Shown piece by piece: positions 2,602 through 31,952 of a stretch of 37,829 nt of DNA (positions within the stretch are counted from its first letter, which is position 1; each line of letters opens with the position of its first letter). This DNA is from a virus, in the UHGV virus genome UHGV-0310098; one strand, given 5' to 3'. Position numbers and translations under genes: made by a program. The notes under the pieces were generated by a model, which saw only the letters and a list, made by a program, of their open reading frames with translations, was not told the origin of the DNA and made no database searches.

Positions 2602-3204
2602 ATGGGAAATTTGGATTTGTATAACAGGGTAAGAGTTGTTCCGGAAGAAGCGAAGAAGACAATCAAAGGCGGTCGCTTGAATGGAATGACGGATATTAAC
2701 CCTATGTGGAGGATCAAAGTGCTTACAAGCGAATATGGTCCGTGTGGTATTGGCTGGTTTTACAAGCCTGTTAAGAAATGGACGGAACAGGCAGGAGGAG
2801 AAACAGTTGCATTTGTAGATATCGAACTGTTTGTAAAGGTAGATGGTGAGTGGTCGCAACCAATCTGCGGAACCGGGGGGAGTAAGCTATCGCAAAACGA
2901 AAGAAATGGTCTTTTTGTTTCCGATGAATGTTACAAAATGGCAACAACAGACGCTATTTCTGTAGCTTGCAAGCAACTTGGAATTGGAGCAGACGTGTAC
3001 TTTGAGGCAGATAGAACTAAGTACGATTCTCCATTTGAAAGAGTGGAGCGAGTGCGAAACGAACTGAAAAAGCGCAGATGTTCAGAATCAAATTTTATGC
3101 AGGTATATAGGTTGGATAATATTGAACAGGTGACAGATAGCCAAATCAAAGATTTTATAGCGAGAATGGAGGCGGCAAAGCATGACAGTGTGGATCAGAA
3201 GTAG
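2602..3204 (+). CDS. Rad52/Sak-family single-strand annealing recombinase (putative)
   Basis: Segment GRLNGMTDINPMWRIKVLTSEYGPCGIGWFY resembles Rad52/22 (Sak) phage proteins. Position follows Gp157. Not verified by search. Confidence 0.45.
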   Translation: MGNLDLYNRVRVVPEEAKKTIKGGRLNGMTDINPMWRIKVLTSEYGPCGIGWFYKPVKKWTEQAGGETVAFVDIELFVKVDGEWSQPICGTGGSKLSQNERNGLFVSDECYKMATTDAISVACKQLGIGADVYFEADRTKYDSPFERVERVRNELKKRRCSESNFMQVYRLDNIEQVTDSQIKDFIARMEAAKHDSVDQK

Positions 3205-3697
3205 AGTGCAGATGCCGAACTACGTGAAAGAAAGTATTAGATCATTGGTAAAGTCGATTTGCGATAAAGATGTCGATGTGAGTATTGCTCTGCACAAAGA
3301 ATCAAAAACAGATCAACAAAGAAAATACTTTTGGACGCTGGTAAAAGAACTCCGCAGCGTTATGAAAAACGGACAGACTGAAAACGATGTGTATTTGCAT
3401 CTTTTAAGGATATACGGGACGTCAGATTTTATAAGCCTTCCGTCCGATCAGGTGCATCTTGCAAGAGCTTGTTACCGGATTGTAGAAGTACAGAACAAGA
3501 AAGAGTTCGTGAACAAGGAAAATGAGCGCATTACTGTTTGTACTTTGCGCTGTTGGAAAGGATTGAGCGAATACGATACCAACGAAGCTTGCATGTTGAT
3601 AGATGGAGCGGTGGAAGAGTGCAAAAGTCTTGGTATTCCGACAGATACGCCGGATGAAATTCGCAAAATGAAAGAGTTGTGGGGGATTAAATTATAA
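3182..3697 (+). CDS. NinB/Orf-like recombination mediator (putative)
   Basis: Motif TDQQRKYFWTLVKELRSV resembles the lambda Orf segment DQNRKLWACLGDVSRQV. GGAGG RBS. Weak call. Confidence 0.35.
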   Translation: MTVWIRSRVQMPNYVKESIRSLVKSICDKDVDVSIALHKESKTDQQRKYFWTLVKELRSVMKNGQTENDVYLHLLRIYGTSDFISLPSDQVHLARACYRIVEVQNKKEFVNKENERITVCTLRCWKGLSEYDTNEACMLIDGAVEECKSLGIPTDTPDEIRKMKELWGIKL

Positions 3698-3700
3698 GTA

Positions 3701-4075
3701 TTGATTACAGCGATATGGCGTTCCCAAAGCCGAAGCGAAAGAAAAAGAAAAAAAGGTCATCAGAGGACGATTGGAAAACCAAAGGAGCTATGGAGCGTAT
3801 TCACGGAGGACATGGATCACTGCATGTACACTAGAGCTTACGGAGTGGAGAGGCATCACATTTTCAGCCACACATCGAAAGAAATTGAGCTTTCGGAGGA
3901 TTATGGTTTTATCGCTCCATTGAGACCAGACCTGCATCCAAACGGAACAAGGGCAGGGGAGAATGCATCAAAAGTTGACCGATACTTAAGAAAACGCTGC
4001 AAAGAGTATTATTTGCAGCACTACGGAACAGAAGAGCAGTTCCGGCAAGAATTTCACTATGTTAGTAAGGGTTAA
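3701..4075 (+). CDS. HNH-like nuclease domain protein (ERHH motif; Rap/NinG-like position)
   Basis: Motif CMYTRAYGVERHHIFSHT with DLHPNGT downstream. Track start is TTG. An ATG at 3715 in the +1-shifted frame encodes MAFPKPKRKKKKK up to an A7 run (see findings). Confidence 0.4.
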   Translation: MITAIWRSQSRSERKRKKGHQRTIGKPKELWSVFTEDMDHCMYTRAYGVERHHIFSHTSKEIELSEDYGFIAPLRPDLHPNGTRAGENASKVDRYLRKRCKEYYLQHYGTEEQFRQEFHYVSKG

Positions 4076-4188
4076 ACCTTTGCTATAAATTGTAACCCGT
4101 TCATGGCTGCTGTGTAGTACGTCACAAATACCTTAAGTAAGCCAGATTCATTGTCTCCCGGTAATTCCGGGAGCAGAAAGGAGAATAA

Positions 4189-4599
4189 ATGGTAATTACA
4201 ATTCCGGGCAAACCGGTTGGAAAAGCAAGACCGAGATTCCGCAGAGCCGGATTTAAAGTCATTACATATACGCCAGACGAAAGCAAAAAATACGAAAAGG
4301 AAGTTGCAAGGATTTACAAGCAGAGCATAGGCGTGCTTTACACGGACATCACTCTGAGAGTTCGAATTTTAGCGAAATTTCCGATTCCAGAGAGCTGGTC
4401 TAAGAAGAATAAGGATAGGGCTTTAAAAGGAGAAATAAAGCCGAATAAGAAGCCTGACTTAGACAACATTGCAAAAATCATTTTGGATGGACTGAATGGA
4501 GTTGCATATACGGATGATAAGCAGGTGACCAGTCTGGAGATTGAAAAGGTATATTCGGACACACCTTGCGTGGTGGTCTATATTGCGGAGGATGAGTGA
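4189..4599 (+). CDS. rusA: RusA Holliday-junction resolvase
   Basis: GKPVGKARPRF N-terminal motif, catalytic-region motif KPDLDNIAKIILDGLNGVAYTDD, about 136 aa. AAAGGAG RBS. Confidence 0.85.
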   Translation: MVITIPGKPVGKARPRFRRAGFKVITYTPDESKKYEKEVARIYKQSIGVLYTDITLRVRILAKFPIPESWSKKNKDRALKGEIKPNKKPDLDNIAKIILDGLNGVAYTDDKQVTSLEIEKVYSDTPCVVVYIAEDE

Positions 4600-5468
4600 T
4601 GGCAGAAGTAAAGTGGATAAAGATAGCAACGGATATCTTTGATGATGAAAAGATATTGCTGATAGAGGCTTTGCCAGATGCTTATGCAATTATAACAGTC
4701 TGGTTCAAGCTACTATGCCTTGCCGGGAAAAAGAATAACGGTGGTGTATTCCTGATGAATGACAAGATTCACTACACAGACAAGATGCTGGCTACAATCT
4801 TTAGAATGAATGAATCCACTGTAAAGTTGGCTCTGAACGCGTTTGAGCAATTTAAAATGATTGAGATAGTGGAGGGAATAATCACGATCCCGAACTGGAA
4901 TAAGCACCAGACATTGGATGCTTATGAACGGAAAAAAGAGCGTGACAGGCTGTACCAAGAGGAAAGAAGAGCCAAACAAAGAGCTTTGATCGAAAAATCG
5001 TCTGACAAGTCGTCTGAAAGAACGTCTGACGTCGCTGTTTCAGATATAGATAAAGAAGAAGATAAAGAAAAAGATAATAATATATATGTCCCGTACAAAG
5101 AGATCATAACTTACCTGAATGAAAAGACAGGCAAGAAACTAAGGTGGGATGTTAAGAGTAACCAGAAGGAAATAAAAGCCAGATTCAATGAAGGATACAC
5201 TCTGGATGACTTTAAGACGGTGATTGATAAAAAATACCATGAGTGGGGCAGAAAGCCTACAAAAGAGGAATTACAGCGCGGAGTTAATGATATGAGGATA
5301 TATCTAAGACCAAAAACCCTGTTCGGCAGTAATTTCGATGTTTATCTTAACCAAGAGCAGACGGAAAAAATGCCAGCAAAACCGCCAGTAAGCAGAAACT
5401 TAAATAACTTCGAACGCAGAGGATACGACATGGACTCTCTGGAAGAGCAGCTGTTGAATTCAAATTAA
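4596..5468 (+). CDS. phage replisome organizer (N-terminal Phage_rep_org_N-like plus conserved phage C-terminal domain)
   Basis: N-terminus VKWIKIATDIFDDEKI...VWFKLLCLAGK. C-terminal motif YVPYKEIITYLNEKTGKKLRW typical of the DnaD/replisome-organizer C-terminal phage domain. Confidence 0.7.
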   Translation: MMAEVKWIKIATDIFDDEKILLIEALPDAYAIITVWFKLLCLAGKKNNGGVFLMNDKIHYTDKMLATIFRMNESTVKLALNAFEQFKMIEIVEGIITIPNWNKHQTLDAYERKKERDRLYQEERRAKQRALIEKSSDKSSERTSDVAVSDIDKEEDKEKDNNIYVPYKEIITYLNEKTGKKLRWDVKSNQKEIKARFNEGYTLDDFKTVIDKKYHEWGRKPTKEELQRGVNDMRIYLRPKTLFGSNFDVYLNQEQTEKMPAKPPVSRNLNNFERRGYDMDSLEEQLLNSN

Positions 5469-5477
5469 GGAGGAATT

Positions 5478-6056
5478 ATGGAACCAAAGAAAGTAACGAT
5501 AAATTACGCTCTGCTCTGTAAGGAACTAGAAAAGCAGGGCAAGACGAAAGAGAAATTCTCGGCAGAACTCGGGAGAAGCAAGTCTTTTGTCTGCAATATG
5601 GCAAAGAACCCGGAACAGACAGAAGATTTTGAAAGAACCATGTGCTTGCTTCTCGGACTTGAACCGGGAAGTCTGGTGAAAGAGCCAGAAAAGAAAGGGA
5701 TGACCGCAGCACAGGCTCTTACAGTAATCAGAGATGAGATTTTAGAGAATCGCAGAATCATGCAGGAGAATTTTGAGAAAATCTGGAACAAGCTGAACAC
5801 CAACACTGTCCAACTGGAAAAGATTAAGGACAAGGTCAACGAGGTATCTAAGACCGATTATGACAAGGCGGTGGAATGGTTAAAAGATAAAATGGCAGGT
5901 GGGCGATATGACGGAGCGAAGCTGCTCATGGAGTCGGATGCCGCGGGAATCAAACGGTCAGATGTCATGAAAGCGAGAAACGAGTTGAAAATAAAGATAC
6001 AGACAACCGGATATGGAAAGAACGCGAAAGCATGGTGGAGCTTAGAAAGGGAGTAA
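5478..6056 (+). CDS. HTH-domain protein (XRE-like N-terminus, coiled-coil C-terminus), function unknown
   Basis: Strong RBS AAGGAGG. N-terminal INYALLCKELEKQGKTKEKFSAELGRSKSFVCNMAKN resembles an HTH_3 fold. Confidence 0.5.
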   Translation: MEPKKVTINYALLCKELEKQGKTKEKFSAELGRSKSFVCNMAKNPEQTEDFERTMCLLLGLEPGSLVKEPEKKGMTAAQALTVIRDEILENRRIMQENFEKIWNKLNTNTVQLEKIKDKVNEVSKTDYDKAVEWLKDKMAGGRYDGAKLLMESDAAGIKRSDVMKARNELKIKIQTTGYGKNAKAWWSLERE

Positions 6057-6058
6057 AC

Positions 6059-6187
6059 ATGAACAGAAAAAGATACGGCTTTAGAGTCTACAGGAAACAG
6101 CCTATCGGATTGAGACACGGAAATATGGATTTGTTTACGCGCGGCATCACAAAGCGGAAGAGAAAGAATAGGGTGAGAGGGAAATGA
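6059..6187 (+). CDS. small basic protein (42 aa)
   Basis: GGGAG RBS. R/K-rich. Below the 60-aa track cutoff. Confidence 0.3.
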   Translation: MNRKRYGFRVYRKQPIGLRHGNMDLFTRGITKRKRKNRVRGK

Positions 6188-6375
6188 CGAACAATGATCA
6201 TTTGAACAACATAACAGGAGAAATTGATACACCAGAAATCTCCGCAGTCAAGATGATACTTACAAGAATAGATGAGGATTTAGAAAACGATCTGTACGAA
6301 GAAAACCGTGATAAATACCTGAATTTGTACAAGAGCCAAAAAGAGTGGCTGGAAAGAGAGGTTGAAAATGAGTAG
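6184..6375 (+). CDS. hypothetical acidic protein (63 aa)
   Basis: ATGA overlap with the previous ORF; GAGAGGG RBS. Confidence 0.4.
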   Translation: MTNNDHLNNITGEIDTPEISAVKMILTRIDEDLENDLYEENRDKYLNLYKSQKEWLEREVENE

Positions 6376-6634
6376 ACCAGCACACTTTCTGGATCCGTAC
6401 AAATTCCAGATCGAAGAGATGGTAAAACTCGGATGCACGGATGAGCATATTCATAAAGTTTTGCATGACATTCAGAAAGTGGAATTTACGAGAGATGATC
6501 TTATCCGGTACATGGATGAAAACGGGATACGAAAGAGGAAATCAGCCAAAAGATGGACGCGGAGCAAAGCAATTGAGTGGGTAGAGCTTTGCAAGCAGTT
6601 GCGAGGGAATAAGAAGAAAATAAGCGAAAAATAG
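6362..6634 (+). CDS. hypothetical protein (90 aa)
   Basis: ORF track; overlaps the previous gene by 14 nt. Confidence 0.45.
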   Translation: MKMSRPAHFLDPYKFQIEEMVKLGCTDEHIHKVLHDIQKVEFTRDDLIRYMDENGIRKRKSAKRWTRSKAIEWVELCKQLRGNKKKISEK

Positions 6635-6686
6635 AAAGGAGCCAGCCTCCGGCCGGGGCAAGGGTATACCGGGCTTCTGAGGAAAA

Positions 6687-8069
6687 ATGAAATTTATAGA
6701 TTTTTTTGCCGGAATAGGCGGATTTAGAAGAGGGCTTGAGCTTGCTGGACATGAGTGTGTTGGATTTTGTGAGTGGGATAAGTACGCAACTGCAAGCTAT
6801 ACATCCATGCATTTAATCACAGATAAACAAAGAGCATATTTAAACACTCTAACACTCAAGCAAAGACAAAAGGAGATTTTGAAAGATGAATACAGAAACG
6901 GAGAATGGTACTCAAGTGACATTAGAACAGTGGATGCCAGGAGCTTGCCCGAAGCAGACTGTTGGACATTCGGCGCACCCTGCCAAGATTTCAGTGTTGC
7001 CGGAAAGAGAGCAGGACTTGACGGAGACAGATCGAGCCTTGTACGAGAAATTTTTAGACTGTTGGAAGAACAAGAAGAAAAAAACAGACCTGAATGGATT
7101 ATCTATGAGAATGTTAAGGGAATGCTTTCTAGCAACCGAGGACTCGACTATCTGTCAATCCTCTCTGAAATGGACAGACTCGGGTACGATATCGAATGGC
7201 AGAATATTAACAGTAAATGGTTCGTGCCACAAAACCGGGAGCGCATTTACACTATCGGACATCTTAGAAGATATGGTTACAAAAAAATACTTCCTGTCAC
7301 GGGAACAGATGGAGAAAATAGTGTTTCAATAATCGCTCATAGAGATGGATACAGAAGAAATACACAGACTTTTTCTCCAGGCGGAATAACAGAAACCCTC
7401 GATACGGGACAAGGCGGAGGAAGAGGACACCATGTTGGAATTCCTTGTTTTTGCGACATGAACTATAAGGCAGGTTTAAAAACAACAGATAGCGCCAGAG
7501 CAATGCAAGCAAGATACAATAAAGGTGTATGTAATAGATCGGGAGAAGTTTCTGGTGTCGTAATTCCTGTTCTCACGCCAGTTAGAGCAGAGAAGCGACA
7601 GAACGGACGAAGATTCAAAGAAAATGGAGATCCGATGTTTACATTAACTTCTCAAGATAGACACGGAATAGCAATCAATGTAAAAGAAGCTACAAAGCAA
7701 GGATACGATGTAGCACATGAAGGTGACAGCATTAATCTTTCTATTCCTGATAGCAAGACAAGAAGAGGAAGAGTCTGGAAACAATTAGCAAATACGCTAG
7801 ATACAAGCTGTAACCAAGGTATTTTTGTTCAGGTGGAAAATGAATTAACAGTGTATGCTATTTGGTATGAAAAATACAAATGTTACATAGCAATCAGAAA
7901 ATTGACTCCAAAAGAGTGCTTTAGACTACAAGGGTGGACGGATGATTATTTTGAGAAGGCTAAGTTTGTAAATTCGGACAGTCAACTTTACAAACAGGCT
8001 GGAAATGGAGTTACGGTAAATGTTGTAAGAGCAATTGGAGATAAAATGACGATTATGAGGAATGACTAA
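6687..8069 (+). CDS. DNA (cytosine-5)-methyltransferase, orphan
   Basis: Motif I FFAGIGGF, motif IV PCQDFS, ENVKGM, C-terminal QAGNGV. No cognate restriction enzyme is visible nearby. Confidence 0.9.
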   Translation: MKFIDFFAGIGGFRRGLELAGHECVGFCEWDKYATASYTSMHLITDKQRAYLNTLTLKQRQKEILKDEYRNGEWYSSDIRTVDARSLPEADCWTFGAPCQDFSVAGKRAGLDGDRSSLVREIFRLLEEQEEKNRPEWIIYENVKGMLSSNRGLDYLSILSEMDRLGYDIEWQNINSKWFVPQNRERIYTIGHLRRYGYKKILPVTGTDGENSVSIIAHRDGYRRNTQTFSPGGITETLDTGQGGGRGHHVGIPCFCDMNYKAGLKTTDSARAMQARYNKGVCNRSGEVSGVVIPVLTPVRAEKRQNGRRFKENGDPMFTLTSQDRHGIAINVKEATKQGYDVAHEGDSINLSIPDSKTRRGRVWKQLANTLDTSCNQGIFVQVENELTVYAIWYEKYKCYIAIRKLTPKECFRLQGWTDDYFEKAKFVNSDSQLYKQAGNGVTVNVVRAIGDKMTIMRND

Positions 8070-11385: not shown

Positions 11386-11458
11386 GGGTGTATAGCTCAG
11401 TAGGTAGAGCAATCGGCTGTTAACCGATGTGTCGTAGGTTCGAGTCCTGCTATACCCG
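11386..11458 (+). tRNA. tRNA-Asn (anticodon GUU), phage-encoded
   Basis: Hand-folded cloverleaf. Acceptor GGGTGTA/TATACCC, D stem GCTC/GAGC, anticodon stem ATCGG/CCGAT with loop CTGTTAA, T stem GTAGG/CCTGC with loop TTCGAGT, discriminator G, no encoded CCA. Confidence 0.85.
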
Positions 11459-11617
11459 CTGTGGACTACTTCAAGTTCCCTCCTTTTTTATAAATTTTGA
11501 TTGTGTACTTGGTTATTTTGGTTTTTGTTGGCATTTGTAATTCTTTCGAGCAGTAGTCCTGAATTCTTGGCATCCAGAGATGGGTGCTTTTATTATGTTT
11601 TAAAGGTGGTGGGTCGG

Positions 11618-29233: not shown

Positions 29234-29323
29234 ATGAGTGAACAGAACGAATTTGGCAGAGTATCCGCAGAGGAACTGGAAAAAGTATTTGAGACAGACG
29301 AGCAGGAGGAAGAGAAAGAATGA
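29234..29323 (+). CDS. 29-aa acidic micro-ORF (MSEQNEFGRVSAEELEKVFETDEQEEEKE)
   Basis: AGGAGGTG RBS. ATGA overlap with the endolysin start. Confidence 0.25.
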   Translation: MSEQNEFGRVSAEELEKVFETDEQEEEKE

Positions 29324-30060
29324 GTATCTGTAGAGGAATTGCCGGCAGGAGAGGGAAAAATCCTGTCGGTATTTTTATTCACAATGGTGCAGATAGCCAG
29401 AATGCAACGGCAGCGTATTATCGGAATTATTTACAAAATGCAAACTTGGAAAATGGATTTGCTCATTATTATGTGTGCAGCGATGGAATCTTACAGGCGG
29501 AAGATGACGAAAATTGTGCTTGGCACTGCGGAGACATAAGCGGAAACTTGAATTATCTTGGAATCGAAACATGCCAGAGTATGGGCGATCTGGATGTATT
29601 TAAAGCAAACGAAGAAAAAGCTTTGCAGTTGGCCGCTGAGAAGTGTAAGCAATACGGAATCGTACCAAACGAAAGCACGATCATGCTGCATCAGGAGGTG
29701 TTTGCAACCGCTTGTCCGCACAGATCAGTAGAGATTCACGGCGGTGCAGCGCAGACAAAAGCCTATTTTATTAACCGTATCAAGGAACTTGTGGGCGGAA
29801 GCCAAAGCGCATCAGCGGATCAGGAAGGAGAAAATGAAGAGATGAGATGTTTGTTTACAGTTGAGGGAAAAGGTGCAGTGTATTATTTTGACGGTCAAAA
29901 AGTAATAACATTGGGTCATCCAGACGAATTAAAAATCATCCAGAAGATTTACAAGGACAACAATGGTAAGGACATTCCGTGTTACAAGTGGAGTCCTAAA
30001 GCGCCATGGTATGCAAGGCTCATGTCGGTAATTTACAGTAAAGAGACCACATCTATTTAA
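29320..30060 (+). CDS. endolysin, probable N-acetylmuramoyl-L-alanine amidase plus C-terminal binding domain
   Basis: Follows the holin. N-terminal half has an amidase/PGRP-like layout (GIFIHNGAD...AWHCGD). C-terminal 70 aa is a separate small domain. Confidence 0.6.
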   Translation: MSICRGIAGRRGKNPVGIFIHNGADSQNATAAYYRNYLQNANLENGFAHYYVCSDGILQAEDDENCAWHCGDISGNLNYLGIETCQSMGDLDVFKANEEKALQLAAEKCKQYGIVPNESTIMLHQEVFATACPHRSVEIHGGAAQTKAYFINRIKELVGGSQSASADQEGENEEMRCLFTVEGKGAVYYFDGQKVITLGHPDELKIIQKIYKDNNGKDIPCYKWSPKAPWYARLMSVIYSKETTSI

Positions 30061-30113
30061 TAAAAATCCCCTCTGTGCTATAATATATGTAGTCAATGCG
30101 AGGGGGAATAAGT

Positions 30114-30293
30114 ATGGAATATCAAATCTACGAATCTTACGATACGTTTTTACTATATCAAGAATTTATGGAGATACCGGGAAATTCTTTCAAATTCCGG
30201 TTGCCAGAAGGTATGACGCTGACAACCGAAATGATGCACACCTTTTTACGGGCGGCGTATATGAGTGTTGGACGGATGGAGTTGCCGTCCTGA
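30114..30293 (+). CDS. hypothetical small protein (59 aa)
   Basis: ATG at 30114 after GAGGGGGA. Last + strand gene before the att region. Confidence 0.3.
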   Translation: MEYQIYESYDTFLLYQEFMEIPGNSFKFRLPEGMTLTTEMMHTFLRAAYMSVGRMELPS

Positions 30294-30311: not shown

Positions 30312-30340
30312 TTGACATAAGTCTAAAAATATTATAAAAT
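30312..30340 (+). promoter_or_regulatory. sigma-A-type promoter (TTGACA, 17 nt, TAAAAT) pointing into the att core and integrase 3' end
   Basis: Consensus -35 at 30312-30317 and -10 at 30335-30340. Confidence 0.4.
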
Positions 30341-30415
30341 TTAAAATGTCTAAAAAATGACTAAGAGAAAGAACAAGAAATCCCTTGTTTACAGGCGTTG
30401 GTGGCATTTCGAATC

Positions 30416-30462
30416 TTTGACTTTTAATCAAGTTGTCCGGGGTTCGAATCCCCGCACGCTCA
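30416..30462 (+). other. 3' portion of a tRNA-Lys(UUU): putative attP/att core
   Basis: Anticodon stem TTTGA/TCAAG with loop CTTTTAA (U33, anticodon UUU, A37). Variable loop TTGTC. T-arm CGGGG-TTCGAAT-CCCCG. 3' acceptor strand CACGCTC plus discriminator A. No matching 5' acceptor strand or D-arm lies upstream. Confidence 0.5.
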
Positions 30463-30605
30463 TTGCTTTAAAGTGGCGGAAATCCAGTATTTACAAGGGT
30501 TTCCGCTCTTTTTATGTCTTAATTCTATAATCGATTTCAAACGATTTTAAACGATTCTAAATGTCTCATTTCTGTCTAATGTCTCATTTTTGTCCCATGT
30601 TTGTC

Positions 30606-31724
30606 CTAAAAATTCATGGCATCATTGACTGCCCCATCAGCATCCTCTTTTTCCATGATTATGTGATTGTAAACCTCTATTACCATCTTTTCAGAATCCC
30701 CCAGTAGCTGCGCAATCCTCTTGATCGAGATCTTCGGAATCTGGTAACACAGGTTGGTGCAGTAGTTGTGCCGGAATACGTGTGATGTAAGACCGGTGAT
30801 CTGTTCTTCCGATTGCTCTTGCAACGCCTTGCGGATTCTCACCCACATTTTATCGTAGCTGCTCTTAGACATCGGTTCTCCGCCTTGCATGGTAAAAATA
30901 TAAGTTTTTCCACGCGCTCTTGCGGATTCTACAAAGTTTTTCACAATGTGCAATATCTTTGTTGGTATCGGGAGAGTACGGTCTCCATTATCGCTCTTAG
31001 TACCTTTTAGAGTAGGCTGCCCGTTACCGGTTGCAAATTCAAAAGCCTTGTTGACTGTAATGGTGTTGTTTTTAAAGTTAAAGTCAAACACCGTAAGAGC
31101 CAGTGTCTCTTCTCTGCGCATTCCGCAGCCATAGATCAGATATGTGTAGACCTGATCCCTGTCGTATTTGTACTCTGCGGCAAAGACAGCTTTCTTCTCA
31201 GATTCCGTCAGAGGGCGTTTATCCGGCGCCTTATATTTAGGTTTTTGGATGCTTGCAAAGATTTCCTCGTATAGTACCGGCGGATAGATTTTGTCCGCCA
31301 TAGCACTTCCCAAAACCTGTTTAAATGCCATGTAGATCTGCTCTTGTGTCCTTGGCTTTCCGTTTGCATTGTTTAGTAAGAGCTGCAGGTGGATTCTGCC
31401 AATATCGGATACTTTAACTCCATCAAGTAGGATAAAGTGCTTGTCTATTATATTGCTGTACATTGCCTTTGTATTACCCTCTTTGGAGTGCTTGTATACT
31501 TCCTTCCATTTCTTTGCGTATTCCCGGAATGTAATGTCCGTCTTCCGGATGTTCTGCCGGCTCTCGACCTTTGCTTTAAATTCCTGTACAATCCGCTCCA
31601 GCTCTTTACTGGACTTTGTTGTCTGTAGATTTTGGCGGTGTTTCGTTCCATCTGTATTATAAGTTCCATCCCATGCTTTTGTGCGGAAATATCCGTCTTT
31701 TCCGCGCTTGTATTTAGTTCCCAT
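30606..31724 (-). CDS. int: tyrosine site-specific integrase
   Basis: C-terminal catalytic region with R (GMRREE), HVFRHNY (H-x-x-R) and EVYNHI (Tyr). ATG at 31724 nine nt after AAGGAG; the track start at 31733 abuts the RBS. Convergent with the tRNA fragment. Confidence 0.9.
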   Translation of the reverse strand: MGTKYKRGKDGYFRTKAWDGTYNTDGTKHRQNLQTTKSSKELERIVQEFKAKVESRQNIRKTDITFREYAKKWKEVYKHSKEGNTKAMYSNIIDKHFILLDGVKVSDIGRIHLQLLLNNANGKPRTQEQIYMAFKQVLGSAMADKIYPPVLYEEIFASIQKPKYKAPDKRPLTESEKKAVFAAEYKYDRDQVYTYLIYGCGMRREETLALTVFDFNFKNNTITVNKAFEFATGNGQPTLKGTKSDNGDRTLPIPTKILHIVKNFVESARARGKTYIFTMQGGEPMSKSSYDKMWVRIRKALQEQSEEQITGLTSHVFRHNYCTNLCYQIPKISIKRIAQLLGDSEKMVIEVYNHIIMEKEDADGAVNDAMNF

Positions 31725-31952
31725 TTTTATCATCTCCTTAAATTTTAGTATAAAAATAACAGCCAGCGCAAAACAAACGTTCCGCTTGCATGACTGCTCC
31801 GAAGATGATACAATATTCTTGAGCTTACTATTGCATTCTTCGGAGCGGTAGTCTTATGGTGAGATACCCGTATTGATTACGGGTGCAAGGCTCGTTGGTA
31901 GCGTGTCTTGCGACATTTTCGTCTCAGTGTTGGTAGCACTGGGGCGGTTTTA

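Follow-up and report, generated by a model that had tools for sequence, protein, structure and literature searches.

The region at approximately 30312-30612 of the virus genome UHGV-0310098 (37,829 nucleotides (nt); the whole of this stretch was analysed and is called the window below) is virtually certain to be the attachment site (attP) of the phage. It contains the 3′ part of a tRNA-Lys(UUU) gene, located beside a gene encoding a tyrosine integrase (Int), and both the junctions of integrated prophages (attL on the int side, attR at the other end) and the unoccupied bacterial site (attB) were recovered from public assemblies. The fuller description of this region, as the attP of a temperate phage of Lachnospiraceae in which promoter and terminator signals accompany the tRNA-derived core, is very probably correct as well. 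The features of the region, including their positions and the grounds for their assignment, are presented in Table 1.

An earlier note on this DNA, made from the sequence alone, had described bases 30416-30462 as the anticodon arm, variable loop, T arm and 3′ acceptor strand of a tRNA-Lys, and direct reading of the sequence gave the same result. The segment consists of (i) an anticodon stem (TTTGA/TCAAG) enclosing the loop CTTTTAA, with the anticodon TTT at 30423-30425, (ii) a variable loop (TTGTC), (iii) a T arm (CGGGG-TTCGAAT-CCCCG) and (iv) a 3′ acceptor strand (CACGCTC) followed by the discriminator base A. This 47-mer occurs once in the window and produced no matches in shuffled sequences. 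Host tRNA-Lys genes do share the sequence: in contigs with and without the prophage, positions 28-73 of the host tRNA-Lys(UUU) agree base for base with 30417-30462. The identity begins at 30417, while at 30416, which is the first base of the anticodon stem, the phage has T where the host has C. Because of this single difference, a scan of genome contigs with the 47-mer yielded three genomes only, and the relatives were retrieved with the 46-mer.

The fragment does not qualify as a tRNA gene, since it has no D arm and no 7-bp acceptor stem (5 pairs are possible). ARAGORN called no tRNA at 30416-30462, the only tRNA gene of the window being that for tRNA-Asn. The Rfam tRNA model (RF00005) scored 25.3 bits at the fragment, i.e. 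below the gathering score of 29 and close to the 21-25 bits obtained for fragments of sister phages that have no 5′ strand; a scan of the window at the gathering score returned the tRNA-Asn gene alone. A complete tRNA, or one placed otherwise, found no support from ARAGORN, from permissive or gathering-score Rfam scans, from a shuffled pairing test or from the predicted fold, and none emerged when other 5′ halves were considered. For practical purposes the 5′ half is thus absent, as the earlier note had stated, apart from a weak candidate for a remnant of the 5′ acceptor strand (AGGCGTT), five bases of which are able to pair with ACGCT at 30456-30460; this pairing is non-significant in the window (shuffle P = 0.22).

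The strongest evidence for the identity of the site comes from the junctions. Contigs with attL were chosen by the presence of the exact integrase protein of the window, and those with attR by the exact protein encoded by a 65-amino-acid (aa) open reading frame (ORF), which precedes attP. In the former, int is followed by the right arm of the window and then by a complete tRNA-Lys(UUU) gene, so that the exact integrase adjoins tRNA-Lys in lysogens; this tRNA gene either ends a Pro-Gly-Arg-His-Gln-Lys tRNA cluster (GCA_013302885.1 and metagenome contigs) or comes after tRNA-Phe. In the latter, the gene for the 65-aa protein is followed by the promoter, the tRNA fragment, a host terminator and an OKR_DC_1 decarboxylase gene. 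The unoccupied attB (5′ part of the tRNA gene, core and host terminator) was found in 56 human-gut metagenome contigs. The attL, attR and attB sequences each share exactly 30417-30465 with the window. The common core defined by the alignment of attP, attL and three attR junctions (TTGAC...GCTCATTG) corresponds to a stretch of the host tRNA-Lys(UUU) gene that begins at the anticodon stem and ends 3 nt beyond the tRNA's 3′ end. Contigs with both phage arms, arranged as in the window, also exist (L011, L013, L018, L020 and L021), and the window therefore represents the free-phage attP form.

In the lysogen, then, tRNA-Lys is rebuilt at attL and the fragment is displaced to attR, which shows directly what the earlier note had proposed, namely that the phage inserts into the 3′ end of a tRNA gene and carries the replacement sequence. 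Integration joins the 5′ part of the host gene to the phage core, creating an intact tRNA-Lys beside int, and leaves the P arm of the phage with its core as the displaced fragment at the other end of the prophage.

The integrase gene lies on the minus strand, and the tRNA fragment is convergent with it, in agreement with the earlier note. Repeats resembling ATGTCTMA are present on both sides of the core, a pattern that is expected for the arm-type sites of a lambda-type integrase, and they are probably the sites bound by the arm-binding domain of Int. Besides the two copies of the P arm, a third related copy, TAAGTCTAAAAA, is located at 30318-30329, within the spacer of the promoter. The run of repeats of the P′ arm, which overlaps the int stop codon, includes ATGTCTTAA as well as two copies each of AATGTCTCATTT and TTTGTCC. 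The anticodon stem is where the match to the host sets in, and from this we infer that the crossover occurs in the anticodon loop, the inverted halves of the anticodon stem being the likely core-type Int sites. Phage and host do not differ at any base of the core, so that the junctions give no position for the exchange; the identity begins at the 5′ edge of the anticodon stem (within 1 nt) in 10 of approximately 12 attP classes of related phages. The adjacent integrase would thus bind the two stem halves and exchange strands in the loop between them, while its arm-binding domain would be held on the repeats of both arms. Judged by its sequence, the site appears to have the full anatomy of an attP used by a tyrosine integrase.

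A predicted intrinsic terminator lies between the core and int, approximately 90 nt before the int stop codon. Its 11-bp stem (30475-30507) is followed by a U-run, and the fold energy is −18.4 kcal/mol; it was skipped by a consensus pattern scan, whose loop limit of 8 nt is exceeded by the actual loop of 11 nt. A hairpin followed by a T-run is present at this position in all of the phage-side (attP or attL) junctions examined. In the lysogen, this terminator comes after the rebuilt tRNA-Lys at attL, where it would end the host tRNA operon and spare int strong antisense transcription; in the free phage it would also end any plus-strand transcript. A 23-nt element of the P arm (30377-30399), which includes part of a short hairpin, is 78% identical to the terminator region at 30479-30501 (repeat D1). 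The loop of the terminator hairpin (AGTATTTACAA between AAATCC and GGGTTT) is alike in several attP classes, and it appears in inverted orientation when L043 and L068 are compared, a hint that proteins may bind the hairpin region as well.

Table 1. Features of the attachment region and of the window, and matching elements of sister attachment sites (classes B-I are sister attP classes; L numbers denote individual loci)
Feature	Position	Strand	Description and basis
Predicted sigma-70/sigma-A type promoter (P_att)	30312-30340	+	−35 TTGACA (30312-30317), 17-nt spacer, −10 TAAAAT (30335-30340); consensus match
Putative P-arm arm-type repeats	30343-30364	+	AAAATGTCTAA and AAAATGACTAA, 11 bp apart; direct repeat D5
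Short P-arm hairpin	30371-30390	+	GAACAAG-AAATCC-CTTGTTT; RNA fold
Possible eroded 5′ acceptor strand	30394-30400	+	AGGCGTT (host GGGCGTG); Rfam alignment
tRNA-Lys(UUU) 3′ fragment	30416-30462	+	Anticodon arm, variable loop, T arm, 3′ acceptor strand, discriminator; direct reading, host identity
Common core of attP, attL, attR and attB	30417-30465	+	49 bp: tRNA-identical 30417-30462 and TTG; junction alignment
Putative 7-bp overlap (strand-exchange) region	30421-30427	+	Anticodon loop CTTTTAA; boundary of host identity
Predicted intrinsic terminator	30475-30515	+	Stem GGCGGAAATCC / GGGTTTCCGCT, 11-nt loop, then CTCTTTTTAT; fold, inverted repeat I8
Putative P′-arm arm-type repeats	30514-30612	+	Run of ATGTCTTAA, AATGTCTCATTTCTGTCT, AATGTCTCATTTTTGTCC, TTTGTCCTAAA; repeats D2 and D4, pattern matches
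Tyrosine integrase gene (int)	30606-31733	-	375 aa; Pfam PF00589 (6.5e-19) and PF14659
Amidase endolysin gene	29320-30060		PF01510
65-aa ORF	30096-30293	+	Last phage gene before attP, marker for attR; exact protein beside core, then host DNA
tRNA-Asn(GTT) gene	11386-11459		69.9 bits; isotype differs from that of the integration-target tRNA
Class B promoter			TTGACA-17-TATAAT; 12/12
Class C promoter			TTGCAA-17-TGnTATTAT
Class D promoter			TTGACA-18-TGnTAAGAT
Class E promoter			TTGACA-18-TATAAT; 12/12
Class G promoter			TTGGCA-18-TAAAAT
Class I promoter			TTGACA-17-TATACT
L003 promoter			TTGAAG-17-TAAAAT, TG extension; by eye as TGTGATAAAAT
Sister att fragment above Rfam tRNA gathering score	L029 1627-1685		37.4 bits
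Sister att fragment above Rfam tRNA gathering score	L027 1029-1089		36.1 bits
Sister att fragment above Rfam tRNA gathering score	L069 726-795		31.4 bits
Sister att fragment above Rfam tRNA gathering score	L036 2219-2275		29.2 bits

Two observations made at tRNA-Lys loci are reported here in their own right. In five metagenome contigs (L161, L173, L174, L185 and L197) and in L116, the 3′ half of tRNA-Lys is joined to the 5′ halves of other tRNAs (GGAGCAT..., GGGATAT...), which results in acceptor stems unable to pair. A host terminator lies downstream of the chimera in the five contigs, and a tRNA-Leu gene takes its place in L116; the downstream region of the chimeras was also found joined to a Phe-Lys or Gln-Lys context. 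These structures suggest rearrangement between tRNA-Lys loci, mediated by integrases or prophages. The second case is L003 (positions 3040-7263; Lachnospiraceae bacterium 3-2), in which a full tRNA-Lys gene and a displaced fragment are just 4.1 kb apart. The interval contains an int-sized ORF, an apparent endolysin C-terminus and a few other ORFs, with tRNA-Leu located 23 nt after the fragment, and it looks like a prophage in decay or a mini-island.

When viral contigs were scanned with the 46-nt core, more than 119 loci were identified, which fall into the approximately 12 attP classes mentioned above, with unrelated left arms. Each class contains two repeats, 11 bp apart, at −70/−59 or −57/−46, and the same class-specific motif is present 3-8 times in the right arm, before int. 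These motifs include TGTTCCA, TGTCTCA, TATCGCA, TTTCTCAC, TGTCACAG, TGGTTCAG and AATGTCC. One tRNA-Lys core and one layout, i.e. promoter, two arm repeats, core, terminator, arm repeats and int, are common to about a dozen integrase lineages that differ in arm specificity.

The promoter upstream of the core (P_att), also recognized in the earlier note, matches the consensus at 11 of 12 positions, and its −10 box ends 75 nt before base 30416. The predicted transcription start (approximately 30346-30348) is located inside the first arm-type repeat. P_att is the sole match of at least 11/12 on both strands of the entire window (local shuffle P = 0.004 within 140 nt). Taken alone, such a match is only suggestive, and stronger support for a promoter reading into the core comes from its conservation in relatives. 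Similar sites are present on the plus strand, at −104 to −129 from the core, in eight of the approximately 12 attP classes (A, B, C, D, E, G, I and L003), with shuffle P values between 0.035 and <0.001 and with scores of 9 (C and L003, both with a TG-extended −10 box), 10 (D and G), 11 (A and I) or 12 (B and E) out of 12. In class B, both hexamers are unchanged, though at least 5 of the 17 spacer bases differ. Sublineages of classes B and C that have unrelated upstream genes become alignable from the −35 box, and the promoter therefore behaves like the module's left border. The distance from the end of the −10 box to the first arm repeat is 3-8 nt in five classes (A, B, D, G and L003).

Several observations weigh against this reading of the region. 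Shuffled windows also yield about one match of at least 11/12, and no promoter was found in classes F, H, J and K, nor in the cultured Clostridium phage phiCs5676-1; the promoter is therefore unnecessary for recombination. At the attR of the phage studied here, the host terminator directly follows the core, and the decarboxylase gene located behind it is equipped with a promoter-like site (TTTACA-18-TATAAT); in the sister classes, too, a terminator closes most of the target sites. As regards the host, its assignment rests solely on the 95-96% DNA identity of the endolysin region to phages of Ruminococcus gnavus. P_att is probably a genuine promoter. Searches of the literature for a promoter within or beside a tRNA attP revealed no direct precedent. 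At one related locus (L002, 2661-2740, minus strand), at a prophage end in Candidatus Anaerostipes excrementavium, a skipping-rope RNA (RF02924, 60.4 bits) is encoded just upstream of the att-site promoter.

Transcription from P_att would proceed across the first arm repeats and the core. The resulting RNA would be approximately 165 nt long in the free phage and approximately 150 nt in attR, ending at the host terminator; since this terminator follows the core, the promoter should make a short RNA only. At the level of the family, it would keep up the transcription of any sequence downstream of the split tRNA gene. In several target sites or attR junctions (L003, L044, L045, L088, L092, L112, L118 and L128), a tRNA-Leu gene is located 4-23 nt after tRNA-Lys. 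A prophage inserted at such a Lys-Leu site would cut tRNA-Leu off from the promoter of its operon, and the outward-directed phage promoter would restore its transcription. We tentatively regard this relief of polarity as the most likely reason for retention of the promoter in related phages, although it may well not be the correct one. At the phage's own site it was ruled out, given the host terminator and the promoter-like site of the downstream gene.

Other roles of the promoter were also considered. Its start site lies inside the first arm-type repeat, which raises the possibility of a coupling to the control of recombination: Int bound to the P arm might shut the promoter, or RNA polymerase might block the assembly of Int on this arm and thereby stabilize the prophage or bias the direction of recombination. 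The short distance between the −10 box and the first arm repeat, which recurs in five classes with unrelated arm motifs, is consistent with this proposal, and intS of KplE1 provides a precedent, its promoter overlapping the att arm and being repressed by Int and the directionality factor (PMC2951348). However, the KplE1 promoter drives int, whereas that of the window drives no gene; in classes C, E and I the promoter is 15-30 nt further from the repeats, and phiCs5676-1 and four other classes manage without it. Such a coupling is accordingly rather unlikely. That the match is merely a chance product of AT-rich intergenic DNA, functionless in this phage, also has a low probability: the number of matches expected in shuffled windows, the lack of a gene after the promoter and its dispensability at this attR would fit a chance origin, but the same element occupies the same position in eight attP classes with otherwise unrelated surroundings, its hexamers are kept across diverged spacers and the homology of the modules begins at the −35 box. 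The earlier note had assumed that transcription from P_att would run through the core and antisense to the 3′ end of int. The former part is supported, while antisense transcription is improbable unless the terminator leaks. An antisense RNA that lowers the level of Int in the circular phage, until integration separates the promoter from its target, would suit the arrangement of the two, which are convergent, 266 nt apart and linked in the attP form only. Outward promoters acting across the joint of a circular element do exist, as in the case of Pcirc of ICEclc. The plus-strand terminator described above, standing before the int stop codon and retained in all phage-side junctions examined, argues against this idea, and we give it very little credence.

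The most elaborate alternative treats the promoter, core and terminator as a small expressed gene for an RNA that would resemble tRNA-Lys, with intact anticodon and T arms but no D arm; this RNA might act as a decoy or regulator, e.g. against enzymes that cut tRNA-Lys, or be a processed stable RNA. In attP as well as in attR, a terminator would confine the transcript to a short length, and the fold of the 166-nt RNA is more stable than those of shuffled sequences (z = −4.3), yet the minimum-energy structure forms a rod with the help of the duplicated TTCGAATC instead of a cloverleaf. The sister fragments L029, L027, L069 and L036 (L027 and L029 being of classes D and E), three of which have strong upstream promoters, exceed the Rfam gathering score with full-model matches of 57-70 nt, which include a 6-bp pseudo acceptor stem and no D arm. 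Against this, the score of the window fragment is at the baseline of fragments that lack a 5′ strand, and its own 5′ strand is non-significant. At the position of AGGCGTT, classes D, E, I and F, whose regions score above the gathering threshold, carry GGGCGT or GAGCGT, and the shuffle P values of the pairing test, combined by Fisher's method over 13 classes, gave approximately 0.02. The GAGCGT of class E pairs with the 3′ strand better than does the host GGGCGT; by contrast, the pseudo-stem of L096 is interrupted mid-way (GGGCAT), and classes C, G and K are devoid of any 5′ strand. Moreover, the GGCG motif belongs to a DNA element with copies to the left and right of the core, which points to a protein site. 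The motif may be a relic of the captured tRNA, a protein-binding site or part of a tRNA-like RNA. We consider it quite improbable that the segment is a gene for such an RNA, and even more doubtful that a D-arm-less tRNA-Lys-like RNA is made across the family, in free phage and lysogen alike, as a decoy for defence nucleases targeting tRNA-Lys or as a regulator of integration and excision.

The attP region is located between the lysis genes (those for the endolysin and the 65-aa protein) and the minus-strand int; this order of lysis genes, attP and int is familiar in temperate siphoviruses of Firmicutes. The 65-aa ORF has its own promoter-like site (30057-30084; TTAATA-16-TGnTATAAT) and a ribosome-binding site recognizable by eye. 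Its product has no Pfam match and is widespread in exactly this form, the index listing it in 64 blocks of the collection; the ORF looks like a small add-on gene expressed in lysogeny. The nearest cultured phages at the DNA level are those of R. gnavus, identified by the endolysin region, and the closest cultured relatives infect Ruminococcus/Mediterraneibacter gnavus.

A 57-aa ORF at 30357-30530 was rejected as a protein-coding gene: its putative product has no Pfam match, no ribosome-binding site was seen by eye, and its C-terminus changes between attP and attR (a 71-aa call in L014); it was judged to be spurious. Gene callers and a GenBank record have placed ORFs for a "hypothetical protein" over the tRNA-derived core in the window (30357-30530), in L199 (1817-2011) and in L014 (339-554). 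ORFs that extend across the core are almost certainly artefacts of annotation.

These results fix the integration site, core and junctions for a common family of human-gut prophages, which helps in the delimitation of prophages in the genomes of Lachnospiraceae. The set of a dozen attP classes constitutes natural material for analysing the co-evolution of arm specificity with Int. They also raise the question of why so many of the modules retain a strong promoter firing through the attachment site.

An attP with its core in a tRNA gene, centred on the anticodon, is a standard and well-known arrangement. The only unusual points are the conserved predicted promoter reading through the site and the putative D-arm-less pseudo-tRNAs of the sister lineages. 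The attP of phage lambda (approximately 250-300 bp) contains inverted core-type sites around a 7-bp overlap and arm-type Int sites in both arms. The site analysed here is of comparable size, with putative core-type sites around a 7-bp loop, and also has putative arm sites on both sides, recognized as sequence repeats, but the core of lambda is located outside a tRNA gene and lambda is not known to possess a P-arm promoter that fires across attP; accessory sites of the lambda type (IHF, Xis) were not identifiable at this attP.

Promoters at attachment sites are known from other prophages. The HK022 prophage drives the host torS gene from a promoter that acts across attL (PMC6814406). P_att, too, would be a phage-encoded promoter that reads out over an att junction into host DNA, but in HK022 a host gene is demonstrably driven, whereas here only the relatives inserted at Lys-Leu sites would drive one. 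The intS promoter of KplE1, which is overlapped by the recombination sites of attL, drives int and is autoregulated (PMC2951348). It resembles the predicted P_att in its overlap with arm-type binding sites of an integration module associated with a tRNA; unlike it, P_att lies on the other arm and is directed at the 3′ end of int.

The target tRNA is shared with mycobacteriophages showing tRNA-dependent lysogeny, whose tyrosine integrase targets a tRNA-Lys-TTT gene; there, the core has approximately 10 bp, the host tRNA is destroyed, a loss made good by a phage tRNA of the same isotype (PMC10865867). This type of lysogeny was considered for the present phage and rejected, since tRNA-Lys is rebuilt by the 49-bp core and the only phage tRNA, for Asn, is of a different isotype. 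In the paper on R. gnavus phages, phiRgPS6 has a different, non-tRNA attB, and related prophages are mentioned as using tRNA sites.

The nearest cultured phage with the same core is phiCs5676-1 (OR574845.1), a temperate phage of [Clostridium] scindens with an integrase 65% identical to that of the window. It shares the 46-nt tRNA-Lys core, convergent with int, as well as similar arm repeats (TGTCTCA, TGTCC) and a similar terminator. It differs in leaving no room for a promoter, as the first arm repeat is separated by 6 nt from the end of a coding sequence, and in its deposited annotation, in which a "hypothetical protein" covers the core.

Anticodon-centred attP/attB sites of tyrosine integrases in tRNA genes were reportedly described by Williams in 2002. 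They are the commonest type of tRNA attachment site in the Islander database (PMC4383910). Compared with the type 'A' sites of Islander, the present site shows nothing essentially different, apart from a core that runs 3 nt past the tRNA and the T of the phage in place of the host C at 30416: in both, a tyrosine integrase gene adjoins the site, the tRNA is regenerated at one junction and its 3′ fragment is displaced to the other.

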